From: Eubacteriales bacterium
Lineage (GTDB): Bacteria > Bacillota > Clostridia > Oscillospirales > CAG-272
Assembly (NCBI GenBank): GCA_045657205.1
Contig: JAZOSS010000011.1
Coordinates: 1-42,672 of the forward strand
DNA: 42,672 bases
Reading direction: 5' to 3'
Shown: positions 21,932-42,672 of the stretch, piece after piece
Layout of the letters: the number at the start of each line of letters is the position of its first letter
Position numbering within the stretch: position 1 is the stretch's first letter
Notes under the pieces: generated by a model
Told to the model about the DNA's origin: nothing
The model's input: only the letters and a program-made list of their open reading frames with translations
Database searches by the model: none
Program-made: the position numbers and the translations under genes

Positions 21932-23080
21932 TCAGTTGTTCTGCTGAGGTCTTACGGGGAAGACGAAGTACATATAGGACTTGTTTTCCTCGTCAACGGG
22001 TGTTATAAGCATACTTGACAAGGGCGTTGAAAGCTGAAGTCTTACCGTATCCGTGTCTATTGCTCTGAAGCTGTCAAGCAAAAAACGGCAGTTAAAGCTT
22101 ATTTCAAGGTCTTCTCCCTCGTGCTTGCACGGTATCTCGTCATATACCTTATTTACGACCGATACGCACGATATTTTGAGCTTATCGCCGTATACGTTAA
22201 GCATAACGCTGCTCTTTACTCTGCCTGCGTCGCTGTCCTCAGTTACCAAAAGCGCTCTTTCAAGGCTTTCCGTAAGGCTGTGAGTCGATATTTCAAGCGA
22301 TATCGGGCAATCCTTCGGTATAAATCTTTCGTATTCTATATAATCGCCGTCTATCTGTCTTGTGTAAAATACCATTCCGTCACGCATAAACATTATGTGT
22401 TTAAGACCTTTGACGACCTTTATTTTATCATCCGTATCAAGTAAGAACTTCTGTATTTCGGGAAGTGCACGTCTTGCTATTATAAAATTAAGATTCATAT
22501 AAGAGCCGTCAACGTTGAAATTTTCCATCTCAACGTCCTCGTATCTTTGAGCAAAACGGAAGCCGTCAAGTGCAGTTACTTTTATATTTTCATCTCTTAT
22601 CTGAAAATAAGCACCGTTGAGCTGTAATTTCTGATGATTGTCCGCAACGGCAAAAGACGTTTGCGAAATTATCCTTTTAAGCGTTTTCTGGCTTATTGAA
22701 AAGGAATAATCACCCGAAAGCTCGGGAAGTCCCGGAAAGAGGTTTCCTTCCATACATACGACTTCAAATTTACTGTTTCCGGATGATATCTTTGCGATAT
22801 TTTTGTCGCTTACGTCTATGAGTATATCATCGGGCATATTTTTCGTGATGTTCAAAAGCTTCTGTGCGTTTATTATGTAACAGCCGGGCTTCTGCACGTC
22901 GGCGTCAATTTCCGTCTGGAAGCCCTTTTCTACGTCAAACGACGATATAAGGCATCTGTCCGAGCCTATCGTTTTGAGTCTTATGCCCTGTATTATTTTA
23001 TTTTCGCCTTTCGTCGATACGGCACCCATTGCGGGTATCAAGGCGTTAAGCAGTACGTGTTTATCGAATAAGATCCTCAT
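21932..23080 (-). CDS. dnaN: DNA polymerase III beta sliding clamp
   Basis: FAVA, ALDGFR, IDGDYIEYERFIP, ISFNCRFLLD, C-terminal FPVR; lies downstream of dnaA. Confidence 0.95.
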   Translation of the reverse strand: MRILFDKHVLLNALIPAMGAVSTKGENKIIQGIRLKTIGSDRCLISSFDVEKGFQTEIDADVQKPGCYIINAQKLLNITKNMPDDILIDVSDKNIAKISSGNSKFEVVCMEGNLFPGLPELSGDYSFSISQKTLKRIISQTSFAVADNHQKLQLNGAYFQIRDENIKVTALDGFRFAQRYEDVEMENFNVDGSYMNLNFIIARRALPEIQKFLLDTDDKIKVVKGLKHIMFMRDGMVFYTRQIDGDYIEYERFIPKDCPISLEISTHSLTESLERALLVTEDSDAGRVKSSVMLNVYGDKLKISCVSVVNKVYDEIPCKHEGEDLEISFNCRFLLDSFRAIDTDTVRLQLSTPLSSMLITPVDEENKSYMYFVFPVRPQQNN

Positions 23081-23443: not shown

Positions 23444-24952
23444 TTACAGTTTTATTTCGCTTTCAATTTCCGAAATTTCCCTCTCAAACAGCGGTTCTGA
23501 CTTGATTTTGTTTTCCACAACGTCAACTGAGTTGATAATTGTGGAATGATCGCGTCCGAAAAGCGAGCCGATCTGCTTAAGCGAGTACGGTGTGTATTTT
23601 CTGATAAGATAAATTACGATGTGGCGGGCGTTTGTTATCTCCTTACGCTTCGACTTGCTCTTTATCTCGTTTTCTTCAATATTAAGACGGCGGGAAACTA
23701 TTTTGAATATCCTGTCAACTATGACCTGGGGTGAAACGTCGATGTTCATCATATCAGCTATCGTCTTTTTCGCCATATCGTACGTTATCGGTACGCCGTA
23801 AAGAGAGCTTTTTGCGGCTATTCTTTTAAGTGAGCCTTCTATCTGACGGATGTTACGGCTCAGACTTTCAGCTAAAAGCGTTACGACGTCGGCAGGTACG
23901 TCTATGTTGTAGGATTCCGCCTTGCTTCTTATGATAGCGGCACGCAGCTCGTAGTCCGGGGGCTGAATGTCGGCAATAAGTCCCATTTCAAATCTGTTCT
24001 GCAAGCGGTCCTCAAGCGTTTCGATGTCACGCGGGGACTTGTCCGAGGTGAGTATTATCTGCTTATGCTCCTCGTAAAGAGCGTTGAAGGTGTGGAAAAA
24101 TTCCTCCTGAACGCTGACCTTGCCTGCAATAAACTGTATATCGTCAATGAGAAGAACGTCAACGGAACGGTATTTGTTTCTGAATATAACGGGTCCGTTT
24201 TTCGTTCTTAAGCTTTCAATAAGCTGGTTTGTAAATTCTTCACCCTTGACGTAAATTATTTTTAAGGTGGGATCCTTCGTTAAAAGCTCGTTTGTAATGG
24301 CGTATAAAAGGTGAGTTTTACCGAGTCCTGACGGGCCGTATACGAAAAGCGGGTTCCAGGCTGTTGAAGGATTCGTTGCAACGGCGTAGCAGGCGTTATA
24401 TACGAATCTGTTTGACGAGCCTACTATGTAGTTATCAAAGGTGTAATCCTTATTTATCGTCGTTTTGAAGTTTATTTTTGAAGAAAGGATAGCTTCCTCT
24501 GTTTCTTCTTCTTTTTCCTTCGGCTTTGTATCGCTTGTAAAGAAGTCAAGCTCACGGCTGTCGTTTATTACGGGCATTCCGATATTGCTTACTTCTTTTT
24601 TACCCGTTCTCGGTGAAGGACGCTGGTAAACGTCACCGTTGAATTCGGGATTTTGCAAGTCGTACTCTATATCTTCTTTTATCTGACGCAGATTTTTTGA
24701 ATCCTTGTCGAGAGCGTAAATGTAAATAACTTTAAATTCACCGAGGACGCTGTACAAGACTCTTTCAAGCACTCTCGTTTCACTTCTGACGAAATCCACG
24801 GTGGCGGCAGTCGGTGTCATAAGGATGGCGTATTCGGATTCGATATCAACTATCTGCATACCCGAAAACCAGGAATTTATCTTTATTTCGGAAAATTCCT
24901 TTCTCAGCTCCTGCAAAACACCTGCCCATATATCTTCATATGTGTTCATCAA
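23444..24952 (-). CDS. dnaA: Chromosomal replication initiator DnaA
   Basis: YTFDNY, NPLFVYGPSGLGKTHL, LLIDDIQF, QEEFFHTFN, NIRQIEG, GRDHSTII; start is TTG 24952 or ATG 24949. Confidence 0.98.
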   Translation of the reverse strand: MMNTYEDIWAGVLQELRKEFSEIKINSWFSGMQIVDIESEYAILMTPTAATVDFVRSETRVLERVLYSVLGEFKVIYIYALDKDSKNLRQIKEDIEYDLQNPEFNGDVYQRPSPRTGKKEVSNIGMPVINDSRELDFFTSDTKPKEKEEETEEAILSSKINFKTTINKDYTFDNYIVGSSNRFVYNACYAVATNPSTAWNPLFVYGPSGLGKTHLLYAITNELLTKDPTLKIIYVKGEEFTNQLIESLRTKNGPVIFRNKYRSVDVLLIDDIQFIAGKVSVQEEFFHTFNALYEEHKQIILTSDKSPRDIETLEDRLQNRFEMGLIADIQPPDYELRAAIIRSKAESYNIDVPADVVTLLAESLSRNIRQIEGSLKRIAAKSSLYGVPITYDMAKKTIADMMNIDVSPQVIVDRIFKIVSRRLNIEENEIKSKSKRKEITNARHIVIYLIRKYTPYSLKQIGSLFGRDHSTIINSVDVVENKIKSEPLFEREISEIESEIKL

Positions 24953-24987
24953 TTGTTTCCTTTATTAAGCAATATTATATCAAGTAT

Positions 24988-25016
24988 ATTATACCACAAA
25001 ATAAGTAAAATTACAA
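24988..25016 (-). promoter_or_regulatory. SigA-type promoter of dnaA
   Basis: Minus strand TTGTAA-17 bp-TATAAT with TG extension. Confidence 0.7.
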
Positions 25017-25067
25017 TATATTTTATAAAATAATTTAATTGTATATATAACTATCTATTATAATATG

Positions 25068-25320
25068 GTAGGGCGGGGGGCTTGCTCCCGCCGTTTCGAA
25101 AAAATCCGATGAATGATGAATCGACACCTCATCCGTCATCCTAACGGATGCCACCTTCTCCCACTGGAGAAGGCAAAGTATAATTTTTAAAAGAGCTGCG
25201 TTGATTGGTGTTACGATAGTTAATTCGATTATCACTTCGAACACCTCATCCACGTAGTTGCAAAGCAACTACATCCCCCTTTCTCCCGCTGGAGAAGGCT
25301 GAATGTAAGGGTCGGCGCCC
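25068..25320 (+). repeat. REP cluster upstream of dnaA
   Basis: GTAG REP plus tail (25068-25111) nearly identical to 42630-42672; two CACCTCATCC..TTCTCCC.CTGGAGAAGGC units (about 25123-25174 and 25242-25300) like those after gyrA; truncated REP at 25305-25320. Confidence 0.85.
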
Positions 25321-25321
25321 T

Positions 25322-25447
25322 ATAACTCTATCCGCCATAGGCGGATAGAATATCACGCTGACGAAGTCAGCATATCACGAAACCGTTAGGTTTCATATCA
25401 CTTTCGCGAAGCGAAAATATCACGCCGACGAAGTCGGCATATCTCCT
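25322..25447 (+). repeat. Array of five perfect hairpins separated by ATATCAC
   Basis: TCTATCCGCC-ata-GGCGGATAGA / GCTGAC-gaa-GTCAGC / GAAACC-gtta-GGTTTC / TTTCGC-gaa-GCGAAA / GCCGAC-gaa-GTCGGC, joined by four exact ATATCAC linkers. Confidence 0.92.
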
Positions 25448-25495
25448 GACGTAAAAATGACAATACGATGTGATTGTTAAAATTAAAAAAATCTA

Positions 25496-25552
25496 TTGAT
25501 TTATTTTCACGTGTGTGATATAATAAATCGGAGAATGTTAAAAAATTAACCC
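25496..25552 (+). promoter_or_regulatory. nadE-glyA promoter with a candidate Rex operator
   Basis: TTGATT(25496)-17 bp-TATAAT(25519-25524) with TG extension; ATGTTAA-AAAA-TTAACCC at 25535-25552. Confidence 0.55.
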
Positions 25553-25568
25553 GAATAAGAGGATAAAA

Positions 25569-29110: not shown

Positions 29111-29317
29111 CTTGAAAAAATTATAGCTATACGGTATGGAAAACGAAGAATATAGTAAACGGTGAATTATAAACAGAAAAACAACCAACGTTTCGGCTGG
29201 TTCTTATAAGGATGTTTAACACAACATTTGTAGGGACAGGCGTCCTCGACTGTCCGCAACAAAAGAAATTCGGCAGAGACATTGTTTTCTCTGCCGATTT
29301 GTGTTATAATGGGGTAG

Positions 29318-29857
29318 GTGATGAATATGGATGAATTGAATAAGAGAAAAACACCAAGATATCAGAGTTTTGATTATAATAGTAGCGGTGTATATTTTAT
29401 AACGATTTGCACACAAAACAGACGATGTATCCTTTCTCACATTGTAGGGACAGGCGTCCCCGACTGTCCGCAAATCGAATTGACAAAATACGGGCAAATA
29501 GCAGATAAATATATCAAGCAATTAAACGATTTCTATAATCAACTGTCTGTTGAGGAATATGTAATAATGCCTAACCATATCCATCTTTTGCTTTGGGTGA
29601 AAGAAAATAAATATGCGATTGAAAACGGACAGTCGAGGACGCCTGTCCCTACGAATATTGAAAGAGCGAATAGCACGTGTTCTCAATTTGTATCTACATT
29701 CAAGCGTTTTTGCAACAAGGAGTATGGCGAAAACATTTGGCAAGCTCGTTTCTACGATCATGTCATCCGTAATCGAAAAGACTATGAGGAACACGTAAAA
29801 TATATCTATGAAAACCCAATTCGTTGGTACTACAATGAATTGTACTCAGAGGAATAG
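29318..29857 (+). CDS. REP-associated tyrosine transposase (RAYT/TnpA-REP, IS200-like HUH Y1)
   Basis: DY...GVYFITICT, HUH motif VIMPNHIHLL, IWQARFYDHVIRN, catalytic YIYENP. Confidence 0.92.
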   Translation: MMNMDELNKRKTPRYQSFDYNSSGVYFITICTQNRRCILSHIVGTGVPDCPQIELTKYGQIADKYIKQLNDFYNQLSVEEYVIMPNHIHLLLWVKENKYAIENGQSRTPVPTNIERANSTCSQFVSTFKRFCNKEYGENIWQARFYDHVIRNRKDYEEHVKYIYENPIRWYYNELYSEE

Positions 29858-29945
29858 GGGTATGGACTTTGTCCGAAGCATTTGTAATACAAATGCGAAA
29901 CTTGCGATAACAATAAATAAGACTTCGATAAAGGAGTTCGATTGT

Positions 29946-30244: not shown

Positions 30245-30378
30245 TACTATTTGTTTTCTGCGGAGCAATTTTTGAATTAACGGACAGTCGAGGACGCCTG
30301 TCCCTACAAGAAATTCCTAACTTCCTTATGAGAAGCAGCCCTTCCGTCGGTTGTTTTTCATTATTCAAATGATAAAAT

Positions 30379-33300
30379 TTACTTCAAAGGACGTGTATAG
30401 TGTCCGTGCTGGTGGATAAGTATTTCCTTGATATAATCGGAATTCTTTATAGCATCACGTACATCCTTGAATCTTTCGTTTGCATCGTAAAGCGCCTGAT
30501 TGCAAGGATAGAACATAATGGGTGCTCGGATCAAATTGTACGTTGAAAGCGGGAAGTCCTCAACACCGTGGTGCGATGCCTGGCAGATATCACTCTTGAG
30601 GTAATTTCCGTAATACTGTTCGAGCTTTCTTGCAGCACCGCTTCCCGAGTCACCGAGGATAAGAGCTTTCTTTGTGCCCGTGTAGAAACGGGAAATAACG
30701 CTCATTTCATTCTGGTCGCCGGGTGTGTATTCGATAAGCATATCGTCGGGTGCAAAAAGTATTTCCATACTAACGCCGCCGAACTTGAAGTCCATACCCG
30801 TGTGAACCGTAAGAACCTTTGTACCGTGGAACTTGTTTATGGAGTCGTATATTTCACCCCAGGTAAACAAGCCGCCCCATCCGCCTTTTCTTGATTCGGG
30901 AGTTTCTGAACAGTACATAAAGTAATCAAGTCTTACACGGGATGCGTACTTATCGGCAAACGATACGAAGCATTCGTAATGGTCGTTATGACAGTGTGTA
31001 AGGAGCCATGCACGGATAACGATATCTTCCTTATCTCCGCCGTTAAGCTCAACGAGCTTGTTGTAGAGTCTGTCGTGCTGATCGGAATAACCTCCGTCAA
31101 CGATGATGAACGAGCCGTCGGTAAGCTCTACGATATACGTCATACCGTTAAGATACGTCGAAGATACCTGTGTTATCGTCGGAGTTGTATTGTAGTTTTC
31201 AAAATACATATTCTTTGCAGGAAGTGCATCAGCATCGCCTATTGCTTCAACAATGCGGAGTCTTCCCGTGTCGTCGTGCCAGTACATATGGTAGAAGTCC
31301 TCACCCTTAACGAACGTCGTTGAGTGGAGATTGCCTTTTACCGTGTCGCTGTATATCTCACAGCCGTTGAAGATAAATCCTGCGTGTATCGCTTCATACG
31401 TTTCAAGCAGTACGTCGTTATAAGTAAGAAGCGTATGACGTTTTGCGTATGAAGGATAAAGAGGTGTTGTGAACGAATCGTCTGCTGTAAGCTCTTTATA
31501 CCAGATTCCGTATTCCTCGCCCATATTCTGCTTAATAAGCTCAAGGTCTGTATTGTCTATCACACCGTCGCGGTTTACGTCGGAATCTGTAAGATATGCG
31601 TGGATCAAGGGTTTGTTCATATGCTTTGTTATCTGAAGGATGTCTTTTGCGTTTACGATACCGTCATTGTTTACGTCACAGTCGGTCGTTTTATAAGGAC
31701 GGCTCAATATTGTTACACCGTAATACTGAGCGGGAACCGCTAAATAAGTGTAAAGGTCTGCCTGTGTTCCTTCAACGAGTGCGCTGTCCTGAACACCGAG
31801 AGCAAGAGTACCGGAGGCGTGAACGGGGGATACTACGTACTGACCGGGCAGTCTTTCAAAGAAGAACCAGTTCTGTGCTATCGAACCTGTTGGTTTGAAA
31901 GCATTTACGAGAGTGCCTTTATCAATAGATCCGTCGCTTGCGTTCATTAAGGAGCCGGAGAGCACGTTTGTAAGTGTGTACGAGCCGTCATCATTTCGTA
32001 CGAACATCCATTTCTGTGCATCGGCTTTGTCGTTTCTGTCTCTCGATTTAACCATATGCGTTGTACTGCCTGCACTTATCGGATCATCTGTAACACCGAT
32101 ATTTACGTTTGCCGTCGTGCTGTTGATCGTAGCAGTAAACGCATCGCCGAAGTCTTTCGGAGGTGCCGTGACGTACTTTTTAGCAGTCGAACCCGTATTT
32201 ATGTAGTGTACAATAGCGTCGTAATTGGTATTTACTGCCGCCTTTACGTCTTCGTTGTTTTCAATATAGTACGATACGTCGAACACAGGGCTTCCCTGAT
32301 AGCCTCTGTGAAGACCTATGCTCAAAAAGTGCTCGTAAAGGTCGTTTCCGCTATTTTCGCGTACGTTTTTCTCTTCATAATACTTGTTTTTGTAGAATTG
32401 TTCATCGTATATCGTGCTCTTGTAAGCAGGATCGAAATAGAATGAAAGAGTTACTCTCTGAGGTACTGTTTTGTTGTATTCATAGAGAGCTATATTTTTG
32501 CCTGCGGAGGTGTAACCGCCTGAGATCTCAATTACTTTACCGCTCGAATGTGCGGGGGATATGGAATATTCACCCGGTATTCTTTCGTAGATATACATAT
32601 ATCTGTGAAGATCGTCAACGCCTGTGTTCGTATACGTTGCAATGTTCGTGCCATTTGCAATAGCAGCGCCCGAAACGTCAAGCGCGGCGTTGGGATACGC
32701 CTTGTTTGTCATCATATACGCACCCGTTTCAGGGTCGTACTTAAAGCACCATACCTGCTTTGTATCCGTAAACGACTGATTTACAGTTTCAACGTTCCAT
32801 GCGTTGTTTGCTTCGTTCGTTGCAGTCGATGCAAGACCGAGGTTCGTTGTTCTTTCGATAAAGTTTACCGTTGCCTCAAAGGAGTCAGCGATATATGCAG
32901 GGGGAGCTGTTTTAAGACCGGTTGTATTTCTGCCCGTGTTGTAATAGTGCATAAGGGCTGCTGTAAGGTGGTTACCCGTGGAGGATTTTACCGAGGGGTT
33001 GTTGTCAAGATAATATCTTGCGCTGAATACAGGGCTTGCCTGCTTGCCTTCCATAAGACCGAACTTGCCGAAATGCTCATAAAGAGCTTCTTCGGTTGCA
33101 CCGACCTTGGAAGCAACCTCGGGGTATTTTACTCCGTAGTATTCCCAGTCGAAAACGATATTCTTTATCGCATCGGGAACGAGGACCTGAATGTTGAAAA
33201 ACTGTGCGTCGGTGTGGTTGTAATAATATGTCTGTGCGTTCGTTCCTTCAGATGTCGAACCGCCGATATCAAGCACTACGAAGTGCGAAGCGTGAACGGG

Positions 33301-34020
33301 GGCGATGACGTACTGACCGGGAAGTCTTTCAAGCAAACGCCACTGCTGAGCTTCCGAGCCGTTTGACTTGTACGTACTTACGTTCGTACCGCTTCCTTTC
33401 AATCCGCCGTTTACGTCAAGAACGCTTCCGGTATATTTGTTTGTGATCGTGTATGAGCCGTTTGCGTTGAATTTAAACGTCCAGATTTGCTTTGTGTCGG
33501 TGATGTCAGCCGCCAAAGCCTGTACGTTATATTTTCCGTTGCCGTTATTATCCATAGGGCTTGAGGCAACGCCTACGTTGAATGCGCCGTTTGACGTGTC
33601 GGAAGCACGTGAAATTACGGCATCAAACGTACCTGCAAAATATTTGTGCTGTATAGGCTGATATGCTGTCGAGGGAGTCTTTGTGCTGCAGTAATGCAAA
33701 AGAGCAGCTCTGTAATCCGTACCGAACTGAGTCTGAAGATCGGTACTGTAATAAAGATAATCCTTTACCGCAAAGGTCGGACTTCCTTTCTTACCTTCGT
33801 CAACACCGTATTCCTGGAAGTGAGCATAAAGCTCATCATCTGTTGAGCCGTACTCTTTGGCAACTTCGGGATACTTGTATGCATAATATTCCGCATCAAA
33901 TACGAAATCTTTGTAATCTGCCGGTATCCAGTCTGCTGAGTTTGCCGTAAACGGCAAGATCGAAATTATCATCACCGCCGAAATTATAAGTGACGCGGTG
34001 CGTTTTAATGATGTCTTCAT
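30379..34020 (-). CDS. Secreted multidomain protein: 3x(Tyr-rich repeat + ricin-B-like lectin), dockerin, ComEC/Pce-like metallo-beta-lactamase-fold hydrolase
   Basis: Signal peptide; three FD..YY..KY...LY.HF...G...G..SP.F units each followed by QxW ricin-type repeats; DVNNDGIVNAKD/DVNRDGVIDNTD dockerin loops; IVDGG, THCHNDH, ILGD, SHHG. Confidence 0.8.
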   Translation of the reverse strand: MKTSLKRTASLIISAVMIISILPFTANSADWIPADYKDFVFDAEYYAYKYPEVAKEYGSTDDELYAHFQEYGVDEGKKGSPTFAVKDYLYYSTDLQTQFGTDYRAALLHYCSTKTPSTAYQPIQHKYFAGTFDAVISRASDTSNGAFNVGVASSPMDNNGNGKYNVQALAADITDTKQIWTFKFNANGSYTITNKYTGSVLDVNGGLKGSGTNVSTYKSNGSEAQQWRLLERLPGQYVIAPVHASHFVVLDIGGSTSEGTNAQTYYYNHTDAQFFNIQVLVPDAIKNIVFDWEYYGVKYPEVASKVGATEEALYEHFGKFGLMEGKQASPVFSARYYLDNNPSVKSSTGNHLTAALMHYYNTGRNTTGLKTAPPAYIADSFEATVNFIERTTNLGLASTATNEANNAWNVETVNQSFTDTKQVWCFKYDPETGAYMMTNKAYPNAALDVSGAAIANGTNIATYTNTGVDDLHRYMYIYERIPGEYSISPAHSSGKVIEISGGYTSAGKNIALYEYNKTVPQRVTLSFYFDPAYKSTIYDEQFYKNKYYEEKNVRENSGNDLYEHFLSIGLHRGYQGSPVFDVSYYIENNEDVKAAVNTNYDAIVHYINTGSTAKKYVTAPPKDFGDAFTATINSTTANVNIGVTDDPISAGSTTHMVKSRDRNDKADAQKWMFVRNDDGSYTLTNVLSGSLMNASDGSIDKGTLVNAFKPTGSIAQNWFFFERLPGQYVVSPVHASGTLALGVQDSALVEGTQADLYTYLAVPAQYYGVTILSRPYKTTDCDVNNDGIVNAKDILQITKHMNKPLIHAYLTDSDVNRDGVIDNTDLELIKQNMGEEYGIWYKELTADDSFTTPLYPSYAKRHTLLTYNDVLLETYEAIHAGFIFNGCEIYSDTVKGNLHSTTFVKGEDFYHMYWHDDTGRLRIVEAIGDADALPAKNMYFENYNTTPTITQVSSTYLNGMTYIVELTDGSFIIVDGGYSDQHDRLYNKLVELNGGDKEDIVIRAWLLTHCHNDHYECFVSFADKYASRVRLDYFMYCSETPESRKGGWGGLFTWGEIYDSINKFHGTKVLTVHTGMDFKFGGVSMEILFAPDDMLIEYTPGDQNEMSVISRFYTGTKKALILGDSGSGAARKLEQYYGNYLKSDICQASHHGVEDFPLSTYNLIRAPIMFYPCNQALYDANERFKDVRDAIKNSDYIKEILIHQHGHYTRPLK

Positions 34021-42146: not shown

Positions 42147-42266
42147 AAAGATCTCCATTCTGCGTAAAATGATCAAACTTACTTGCGTATACTTACAATC
42201 GGTTTTATTTTATCATATATATATAAACAAGTCTTGAACTTACCGAAAAAAAACCGTCCTGCCTCC

Positions 42267-42672
42267 CATAACTCTATCCGCCGCAGGCGGATAGAATATC
42301 ACGCTGACGAAGTCGGCATATAAAAATAAATGTCCGTATCAACGTAAGACGGCAAAAATGAGATAATTGTAGGGACCGACGTCCTCGGCGGTCCGTATGA
42401 TGTAGGGCGGGGGCTTCCGCCATAACTCTATCCGGCGCAGGCAGATAGAATATCACGCTGACGAAGTCAGCATATCACGAACCGTCAGGTTCTATATCAC
42501 TTTCGCGAAGCGAAAATATCACGCCGACGAAGTCGGCATATAAAAAAGCTCCGTATCAACGTAGGGCAGGGGAAAAATCAGATAATAGATAAAACCGTAG
42601 GGGCCGGCGCCCACGACGACCCGCATGTTGTAGGGCGGGGGCTTGCTCCCGCCGTTTCGAAAAAATCCGATG
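42267..42672 (+). repeat. Mosaic repeat cluster of ATATCAC hairpin arrays and GTAG REPs, running to the window edge
   Basis: Short array 42268-42320, REP 42369-42395, half REP from 42402, full five-hairpin array 42422-42541, REPs at 42597-42623 and from 42630. Confidence 0.9.

Follow-up and report, generated by a model that had tools for sequence, protein, structure and literature searches.

A hairpin array in a gut Clostridia genome is a one-armed copy of the Gut-1 (RF01706) motif, which appears to form the leading end of small mobile cassettes

The array is a reduced copy of Gut-1

We analysed a stretch of 42,672 nucleotides (the window) which is the whole of contig C11 (GenBank JAZOSS010000011.1) of an Eubacteriales bacterium genome (GCA_045657205.1), here called G000, with an assembly of 1.94 Mb in 132 contigs. 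It carries an array of small hairpins joined by the constant heptamer ATATCAC, and this array is a stripped-down copy of the Gut-1 RNA motif of Rfam (RF01706), read on the opposite strand. Complete elements of the family are two-armed, differ in place and length among close relatives and repeatedly precede a small gene of the PF05635 family; in these gut bacteria Gut-1 seems to mark the leading end of small mobile cassettes with genes. The evidence as a whole tilts, modestly, towards the explanation that the window array is a one-armed, cargo-less copy of the Gut-1 family, the full module of which heads such cassettes and acts as a structure-dependent site of DNA recombination or insertion.

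By sequence reading, the array (25327-25445; plus strand, as all window coordinates unless stated otherwise) consists of five perfect hairpins with four exact ATATCAC linkers between them. The 10-bp head hairpin TCTATCCGCC-ATA-GGCGGATAGA (25327-25349) forms, together with a preceding linker-like ATAACTC, the array head (25320-25349), as seen by reading and DNA folding. Four linkers (25350-25356, 25372-25378, 25395-25401 and 25417-25423) then alternate with four mini-hairpins with 6-bp stems, namely GCTGAC-GAA-GTCAGC (25357-25371), GAAACC-GTTA-GGTTTC (25379-25394), TTTCGC-GAA-GCGAAA, which includes GCGAAGC (25402-25416), and GCCGAC-GAA-GTCGGC (25424-25438), and a degenerate linker ATATCTC (25439-25445) closes the array. 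Linker count and DNA fold classify the segment 25350-25445, with four linkers, four mini-hairpins and a degenerate end, as an array of the right-arm type described below. A second full one-armed array with a GCA head loop (42422-42541; linkers at 42450, 42472, 42494 and 42516) is 93% identical to the first, and a short copy (42262-42320) retains a head hairpin, one ATATCAC linker (42296-42302) and one hairpin.

The array, its constant linker and its recurrence at 42422-42541 had been noticed in an earlier reading of the letters without database searches (the sequence-only reading), and reading, shuffling and folding confirmed them. ATATCAC occurs 19 times in the window as compared with 4.43 expected, a count reached in none of 100 shuffles. 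Throughout G000, 60 of 64 ATATCAC-N13-18-ATATCAC intervals formed a perfect hairpin with a stem of 5 bp or more, with 21 distinct stem sequences, whereas shuffled intervals gave 0.73 hairpins on average and never more than 3. The window array folds with -34.1 kcal/mol (z -6.96) as DNA on the plus strand and with -63.4 kcal/mol (z -5.62) as RNA on the minus strand. The idea of a non-autonomous, structure-constrained repeat was supported. The further statement that both arrays begin after a cut-off GTAG-type repetitive extragenic palindrome (REP) holds for the second one, which abuts a GTAG REP variant (42402-42421); the remnant GTAAGGGTCGGCGCCC directly 5' of the first (25305-25320) begins with GTAA and is only REP-like when compared with the GTAG REPs from 42608 on.

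The same reading knew of no named family with this layout and had itself named an Rfam match as a refuting result; RF01706 matches on the other strand, and that claim had to be given up. A local search placed RF01706 at 25320-25403 of the minus strand (42.8 bits, E 5e-7) and twice on the minus strand of the second array, at 42417-42502 (35 bits) and 42467-42546 (44.1 bits). These three matches, found by a permissive Rfam scan, miss the curated gathering threshold of 50 bits, so that a default scan of the window is empty. G000 contains 43 Gut-1 matches at E<=0.01, nine of them above the cut-off with 54.6-67.9 bits. The alignment spans model positions 1-77 of 77, and three consecutive hairpins with GUGAUAU linkers correspond to the three hairpins with GUGAAAU joins of the model. 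The likeness thus comprises at least three mini-hairpins with GUGAAAU or GUGAUAU joins, the same start with a long hairpin (H0) and CAGUUAUAUUCGCC, and occurrence in gut Clostridia; the 2010 Gut-1 seed alignment, in supplement 5 of its paper, likewise holds GUGAUAU variants, the H0 hairpin and the start CAGUUAUAUUCGCC (PMC2864571). In the available excerpts of that study, Weinberg et al. describe Gut-1 as a likely non-coding RNA from human-gut metagenomes only (PMC2864571). Our literature search for the Gut-1 RNA motif found no later study, and besides the original one only a 2026 structure-prediction benchmark; a search for ATATCAC with hairpin returned unrelated papers only. The window copies differ from the Rfam motif in being one-armed, below threshold and amplified.

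Complete elements have two convergent arms

The complete element of about 170-200 bp consists of H0, a left arm, a centre and a right arm, a layout shared by seven ATATCAC-type loci in G000 and likewise found at further loci with other linkers. Three or four mini-hairpins with GTGATAT linkers and TTC or TNC loops form the left arm, and three or four with ATATCAC linkers and GNA or GNRA loops the right arm. The centre carries a second copy of the first hairpin's 3' half and base-pairs with the beginning of the left arm (TTTATTCGCC...GGCGAATAAA, AAATTCGTTC...GAACGAATTT, TAAGTGTTCCGC...GCGGAACACTTA). RF01706 matches both arms of full elements, in convergent orientation. Rfam models one arm as a small RNA (sRNA) gene, whereas the full elements have two convergent arms and add a closing stem as well as a downstream promoter and cargo. 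In full elements this closing stem is long-range and has the left arm inside it; the head hairpin of the window arrays corresponds to it, but no left arm is present there. Such arrays (our type A) may have been derived by deletion of the left arm between two GGCGA repeats.

By reading, we distinguished eight linker types in G000, given here as left/right pairs: GTGATAT/ATATCAC, ATGAAAT/ATTTCAT, GTGAAGT/ACTTCAC, GTGAAAT/ATTTCAC, ATGATAT/ATATCAT, GTGATGT/ACATCAC, GTTATGA/TCATAAC and a mixed GAAAT type. Left-arm and right-arm linkers were reverse complements in every full element read. This co-variation rests on sequence reading because the automatic arm detector was too strict; it paired 14 left and right arms, nine with complementary 6-mers, the other five being adjacent right-type runs. 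At public loci, 50 of 87 arrays were two-armed, that is, had at least two inverted linkers upstream. The earlier proposal that the constant heptamer is the sequence-specific part agrees well with these data, as linkers co-vary between arms and cargo junctions lie directly past the last linker.

The hairpins are strongly constrained. In a set of 108, the closing pair is C-G in 89 and an internal non-Watson-Crick pair is present in only 10. Orthologous copies differ by compensatory changes, e.g. TATGGC/GCCATA versus TGCGGC/GCCGCA. The loops on the strand of the sequence-only reading are indeed GNA or GNRA closed by C-G, which means that these stable loop types stand on the strand opposite to that of Rfam.

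Elements lie between terminator-like hairpins and promoters

Elements in G000 are located directly 3' of tRNA-Trp, Tyr, Glu, Arg, Asn and Cys genes. As judged by eye, H0 often resembles an intrinsic terminator, and behind tRNA genes a two-way one composed of an A-run, a GC stem and a T-run, with only 3-6 nt from the T-run to the first linker. At the other end, a consensus promoter begins 0-6 nt past the last linker in many copies (e.g. TTGAAA-17-TATAAT, 11 of 12 positions). The gene that follows repeatedly belongs to PF05635, the "23S rRNA intervening-sequence protein" family of Avd-like four-helix bundles; an element is found directly 5' of six to seven of the nine PF05635 genes in G000 (one partial, at a contig end). 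PF05635 was the only downstream Pfam family seen more than twice, HTH_3 being seen twice. In other copies the right arm is followed by recurrent non-coding tails, or the promoter is fused straight to the 3' tail and the gene is gone. The arrays of the window are one-armed, carry no cargo and lie within GTAG REP clusters.

This setting bears on the explanation implied by the Rfam entry, namely that Gut-1 is a structured sRNA serving as a transcribed scaffold for a protein, an RNA-stability element or a transcript-end insulator. The RF01706 matches, the strong fold z-scores (-5.6 and -9.0) and the entry "RNA? Y" in the table of the 2010 study (PMC2864571) speak for an RNA. The base pairs do so as well: the internal non-Watson-Crick pairs of the 108 hairpins, read on the Gut-1 strand, are 7 of G.T type, 2 A.C and 1 other, and the linker ends contribute A-U and G.U pairs to the Rfam model, on this strand only. 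However, the motif occurs twice and convergently in each full element, so that a single transcript cannot be "sense" for both arms. The arms are wedged between a terminator-like hairpin, with its T-run so close to the first linker, and the promoter of the cargo; the stable GNA and GNRA loops are on the wrong strand for Rfam; copy number, unit number and location differ among close relatives; and relatives of the module upstream of PF05635 genes are free of hairpins. We therefore consider an sRNA rather unlikely. Convergent arms, terminator-promoter position and near-perfect palindromes fit action at the DNA level better, as do the loops stable on the non-Rfam strand, junctions at heptamers and hairpin loops as targets. 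Regarding expression, a single metatranscriptome, stored as contigs with 8% of words and no strand information, covers the array. In public reads, which give neither ends nor strand, the repeat parts were 30-60x deeper than their flanks in DNA and RNA libraries alike, and the metatranscriptome showed no difference from the DNA runs in the ratio of repeat to flank depth.

Elements and cassettes differ among close relatives

Comparison of G000 with its relatives showed that the elements and their cassettes vary in place, order and length. A unit of about 650 bp comprising H0, element, promoter and PF05635 gene lies 3' of rplL in G000 and G006 and is absent after rplL in the other nine of the eleven genus genomes, G000 being counted among the eleven. 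At about 80% identity, units of the same type are found 3' of rpmA in G008 and 3' of a membrane-protein gene in G003. A clean boundary after rplL cannot be drawn because the downstream region is not syntenic across the genus. Behind a gene of the 5-enolpyruvylshikimate-3-phosphate (EPSP) synthase family (PF00275), the terminator of G006 is intact (AAAACCGCAGATCACTCTGCGGTTTTTT), and in G000 a two-armed element with a non-coding tail of about 190 bp sits inside the terminator loop. One comparison suggests that a further copy, on contig C61, has interrupted the loop of a different hairpin module, which is uninterrupted upstream of the REP-associated tyrosine transposase (RAYT)-like gene of the window.

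At the tRNA-Cys locus the elements of G000 and G006 are orthologous and show compensatory stem changes, and the cargo differs right after the last linker, ACATCAC. The tRNA-Trp locus reads H0a-element-tail-H0b-element-promoter-ORF162 (ORF, open reading frame) in G000, H0b-element-promoter-PF05635-ORF-ORF162 in G008 and H0b-element-promoter-ORF162-H0b-element-promoter-PF05635 and more in G006. As a separate observation, at the locus which in G000 holds tRNA-Tyr, an element and a PF05635 gene, G006 (L057; G006:C3:50000-51508) has a large serine recombinase gene, followed by a short tRNA-like remnant (GGTTCGAA...CATACGCAAAA) and then by an element from a different subfamily, the right arm of which has seven hairpins; the same remnant-like tail follows right arms in several genomes.

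Arrays also differ in length. G000 has 22 ATATCAC-type arrays, a lower bound as for all copy counts in this genome, with a period of 22-23 bp. The longest runs, of 15 hairpins on C101 and at least 11 on C93 where the contig ends, are built of a three-hairpin super-unit of 66 bp, and the 15-unit array of C101 is a one-linker remnant at the same site of G006. Such near-identical super-units and the difference in length at one site would be expected if the window arrays were a functionless satellite, its 66-bp unit multiplied through replication slippage or unequal crossing-over in the absence of dedicated machinery. Slippage accounts for amplification. The class-wide grammar, the co-variation of linkers between inverted arms, the compensatory changes and the setting in cassettes are left unexplained by it, and we regard a mere satellite as very unlikely.

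Heptamer arms accompany PF05635 genes beyond the genus

We surveyed 41 genomes, the resulting tables being descriptive only as relatives are not independent. Both Gut-1 and PF05635 were found in 25 of them, Gut-1 only in 4 (with few or weak matches), PF05635 only in 2 and neither in 10. Gut-1 is accordingly present in 29 of the 41 relatives; RF01706 was also matched in 28 of 151 genomes of the class and in none of 14 control genomes. Carriers are Oscillospiraceae, Acutalibacteraceae, Ruminococcus and unclassified Clostridia metagenome-assembled genomes from ruminant and human gut. A search for repeated hairpin-ATATCAC units, as suggested in the sequence-only reading, found the pattern in 19 of the 41 genomes, and the reversed three-linker pattern used as a control had no match in any of the 41. 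By count, 86 of 121 ATATCAC loci were true hairpin arrays. When 119 loci were checked for viral contigs, a filter flagged seven, about four of which were real arrays by eye, with no sign of a phage link.

Beyond the genus, we examined the upstream regions (about 600 bp) of 40 PF05635 genes in 17 further genomes. Gut-1 matched in 12 and a tRNA gene was present in 17 of these regions; an inverted repeated 6-mer was found by script in 29 of the 40, compared with 71 of 2000 random G000 windows. Fourteen of the regions, ten of them without a Gut-1 match, were read by eye and showed the same grammar with other 7-mers. Some of the upstream arrays contain no hairpins and consist of tandem GAATGCA, TTCATTA/TGAATAA or CTTAC-type repeats. 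Hairpin-free inverted 7-nt arms head PF05635 genes at loci L341, L342, L344, L348, L355, L378 and L379, which suggests that the heptamer, not the hairpin, may be the primary signal.

When 41 PF05635 proteins were placed in a tree, their 15 motif classes required 14 changes, the minimum possible, while 300 label shuffles gave a minimum of 22 and a mean of 25.6 (rows L346 and L364, for which no ORF was recovered, and L349, with a wrong ORF, were omitted). Motif class thus follows protein clade, as it would if the heptamers were double-stranded DNA operators for a regulator, perhaps PF05635 itself, of the adjoining promoter, their 22-bp spacing placing them on one helix face and solo arrays being dead remnants. 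The promoter abutting the last linker in many copies, the hairpin-free heptamer arrays ahead of PF05635 genes in other genera and the period of 22-23 bp agree with such operators. An operator spacer, however, has no need of compensatory hairpin upkeep or of constrained loops and closing pairs; many arrays have no adjoining promoter or gene; and regulation leaves insertion into hairpin loops, cargo swapping and the 15-unit amplification unexplained. Operators are in our judgement an unlikely explanation.

A further-reaching version of the favoured explanation takes PF05635 proteins as sequence-specific partners of their own arrays. Together they would constitute a new class of mobile, promoter-bearing cassettes that target hairpin loops and terminator flanks. 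The Gut-1 "RNA" would be the DNA signature of this class, and the classical intervening sequences of 23S rRNA would represent one particular instance of it. Solo arrays would be non-autonomous and served in trans by the cognate protein, which for ATATCAC might be one of the clade of G000:C87:2899-3201. We put this forward tentatively, as a possibility that falls well short of being probable.

The arrays do not require the RAYT-like gene

The sequence-only reading had proposed that a RAYT or another HUH Y1 enzyme, for instance the one encoded at 29318-29857 (plus strand), acts on the hairpins and linkers as single-stranded DNA, with ATATCAC as guide or cleavage motif. This gene matches NCBIfam NF047646 with 68.3 bits (cut-off 80), and Pfam gave nothing at 1e-3, Y1_Tnp being reached only at E 0.025. 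Hairpins beside a short constant single-stranded motif are the grammar of REP/RAYT systems and of the ends of the insertion sequences IS200/IS605, the arrays lie amid GTAG REPs, and all 11 genus genomes have both Gut-1 and RAYT-like matches. Moreover, the gene region (29231-29317, 29858-29905) shares with PF05635 cassettes elsewhere (L038, L041, L162 and L170) a promoter module, consisting of the hairpin CGGCAGAGA..TCTCTGCCG and TTTGTGTTATAATGGGG, and the 3' tail GGGGTATGG...TTTGTAATACAAATGCGAAAC. It seems that a common cassette frame can receive different small genes.

The wider sample does not support the link. At E<=1e-5 for Gut-1, both features were present in 18 of the 41 genomes, Gut-1 only in 11, the RAYT-like gene only in 4 and neither in 8, so that the expected co-occurrence failed in 11 Gut-1 genomes. 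Two of these genomes are rich in Gut-1, namely G027 (27 matches at 98% completeness) and G036 (28 at 85%), and in both of them RAYT-like and PF01797 matches are lacking. PF01797, the Y1 transposase family of IS200/IS605, is absent at E<=1e-3 from nine Gut-1-bearing genomes (G027, G036, G023, G024, G003, G013, G017, G022 and G039). On either side of the window gene stands a copy of a single GTAG REP, the two being inverted (29231-29257 and 30283-30309), the usual sign of a cognate repeat, and no array adjoins any of the four RAYT-like matches of G000. We consequently find it hardly credible, and less so than any other explanation weighed here, that a RAYT serves these arrays. Separately, in-frame stop codons occur in several RAYT-like copies of the genus (e.g. 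G000:C89:16698-17252 and G006:C13:126149-126589), which points to decay of part of the RAYT complement. An ORF of 1213 aa (30379-34020, minus strand) lies beside the RAYT-like gene of the window.

Gut-1 elements as putative structure-dependent DNA sites

We favour a mechanism in which the mini-hairpins extrude, or fold when the DNA is single-stranded, and a protein acting in trans recognises the heptamers, the candidate being the cognate PF05635 protein. Breakage and joining at a heptamer, the putative crossover point, would account for the swapping of cassettes, for changes in unit number and for loss of an arm. The copy at 25320-25445 and others like it would be side products, decayed or amplified, that had come to lie within clusters of REPs.

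Several findings weigh against this mechanism, in addition to the lean of the wobble pairs towards the Gut-1 RNA strand and the pairs gained from the linker ends, which suit an RNA. The congruence of PF05635 tree and motif classes, although also expected of cognate protein-site pairs, can arise from linked inheritance alone, and to our knowledge no catalytic activity of PF05635 proteins has been described. Most arrays occur without this family: it is downstream at only 6 of the 121 ATATCAC loci of public genomes, and by Pfam 4 of 52 downstream ORFs belong to it. We identified no recombinase or nuclease and saw no excision product or circular form, and the PF00275 site, the sole clean filled/empty pair found, shows no clear target-site duplication. 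Promoters are consensus calls and terminators were called by eye; H0a escaped a consensus terminator scan, probably because its stem is prolonged by the A/T runs. Finally, the G000 assembly is fragmented, with contigs ending at these repeats.

Gut-1 has been in Rfam since 2010 as an sRNA annotated without function, to which the present analysis adds its carriers, its architecture, a genomic role and a candidate protein partner. PF05635, a widespread and unexplained family, gains a concrete candidate nucleic-acid target, and a testable route is offered by which inserts resembling intervening sequences may reach hairpin loops. In genome annotation, Gut-1 matches are better treated as paired repeat modules that break assemblies than as single sRNA genes.

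Comparison with known systems

Like REPs, their bacterial interspersed mosaic elements (BIMEs) and REP doublets (REPINs), the arrays are intergenic, present in many copies, hairpin-forming and part of mosaic clusters, in which they are interleaved with GTAG REPs. Unlike these, they have no GTAG head and imperfect palindrome; their units consist of ATATCAC and a perfect mini-hairpin with free hairpin sequence and a fixed 7-nt linker, are direct repeats within an arm and do not depend on a RAYT.

Integrons offer another parallel, as their recombination acts on folded single strands. Gut-1 cassettes are likewise arranged in tandem and in one direction at a fixed platform and shuffled between relatives (tRNA-Trp in G000, G006 and G008), each with a structured, sequence-variable, palindrome-rich site reminiscent of attC. 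However, the site is at the 5' and not the 3' end of the cassette, the cassettes carry their own promoter, the platform is provided by the 3' flanks of several kinds of tRNA operon (Trp, Tyr, Glu, Arg, Asn, Cys), and the sequences read contain no R''-L''/L'-R' boxes. No integrase lies beside the tRNA-Trp platform on C105, the only platform annotated, where the tRNA neighbour is a phosphatidylserine decarboxylase; intI was not searched genome-wide.

In 23S rRNA intervening sequences, the available excerpts of a published account place S23p (PF05635) within a small selfish insert in the loop of helix 45 (PMC4990558). The PF05635 cargo and the Gut-1 element in a terminator loop resemble such inserts, known for example from Coxiella and Leptospira. 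They differ in that Gut-1 elements are hosted by tRNA flanks, terminators and REP clusters instead of rRNA, are flanked by heptamers and mini-hairpins instead of one long stem, and imply no processing by RNase III.

Pneumococcal BOX elements (boxA-boxB(n)-boxC), Correia elements and miniature inverted-repeat transposable elements (MITEs) are modular and intergenic, have variable internal units and no known dedicated transposase. Gut-1 elements share the modular build, the variable unit number, the strong secondary structure, the intergenic position and the lack of a known dedicated transposase, but have 22-bp units with free stems and inverted array arms rather than simple terminal inverted repeats. 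With regard to MITE traits, inverted arms are present, the one clean insertion shows no clear duplication, and the recurrent coding partner is PF05635 and not a known transposase.

Surroundings of the arrays

The first window array lies in the dnaA-nadE spacer, which is syntenic across the genus; G004, G008 and G009 have a one-armed array of the ATTTCAT subfamily elsewhere in this spacer, amid GTAG REPs. As the array is situated between dnaA and the next gene, a role as DnaA boxes or in oriC was considered and dropped. The DnaA-box consensus is TTATNCACA. The array motif is one base short of it, about 20 other loci carry arrays, and the same spacer of relatives holds arrays of another subfamily at other places. 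A reading as clustered regularly interspaced short palindromic repeats (CRISPR) was rejected because the variable parts are palindromes.

Immediately to the left of the array are dnaN (21932-23080, minus strand) and dnaA (23444-24952, minus strand), the spacer extending from 24953 to 25568. An AT-rich block adjoining the array is conserved across the genus and lies beside dnaA in G000 and beside the next gene in G004, G008 and G009, which indicates that repeat clusters entered the spacer on different sides. Short repeats of a GATAAT/AGATAA-type family occur beside several one-armed arrays (window 42560-42600; G000:C101:5600-5690) and also flank another post-tRNA PF05635 gene (G000:C25:1400-2100). 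Genes near Gut-1 elements of G000 (L019:247-1848 and L020:1003-4017) encode repeated ricin-type lectin domains, in one case together with a dockerin.

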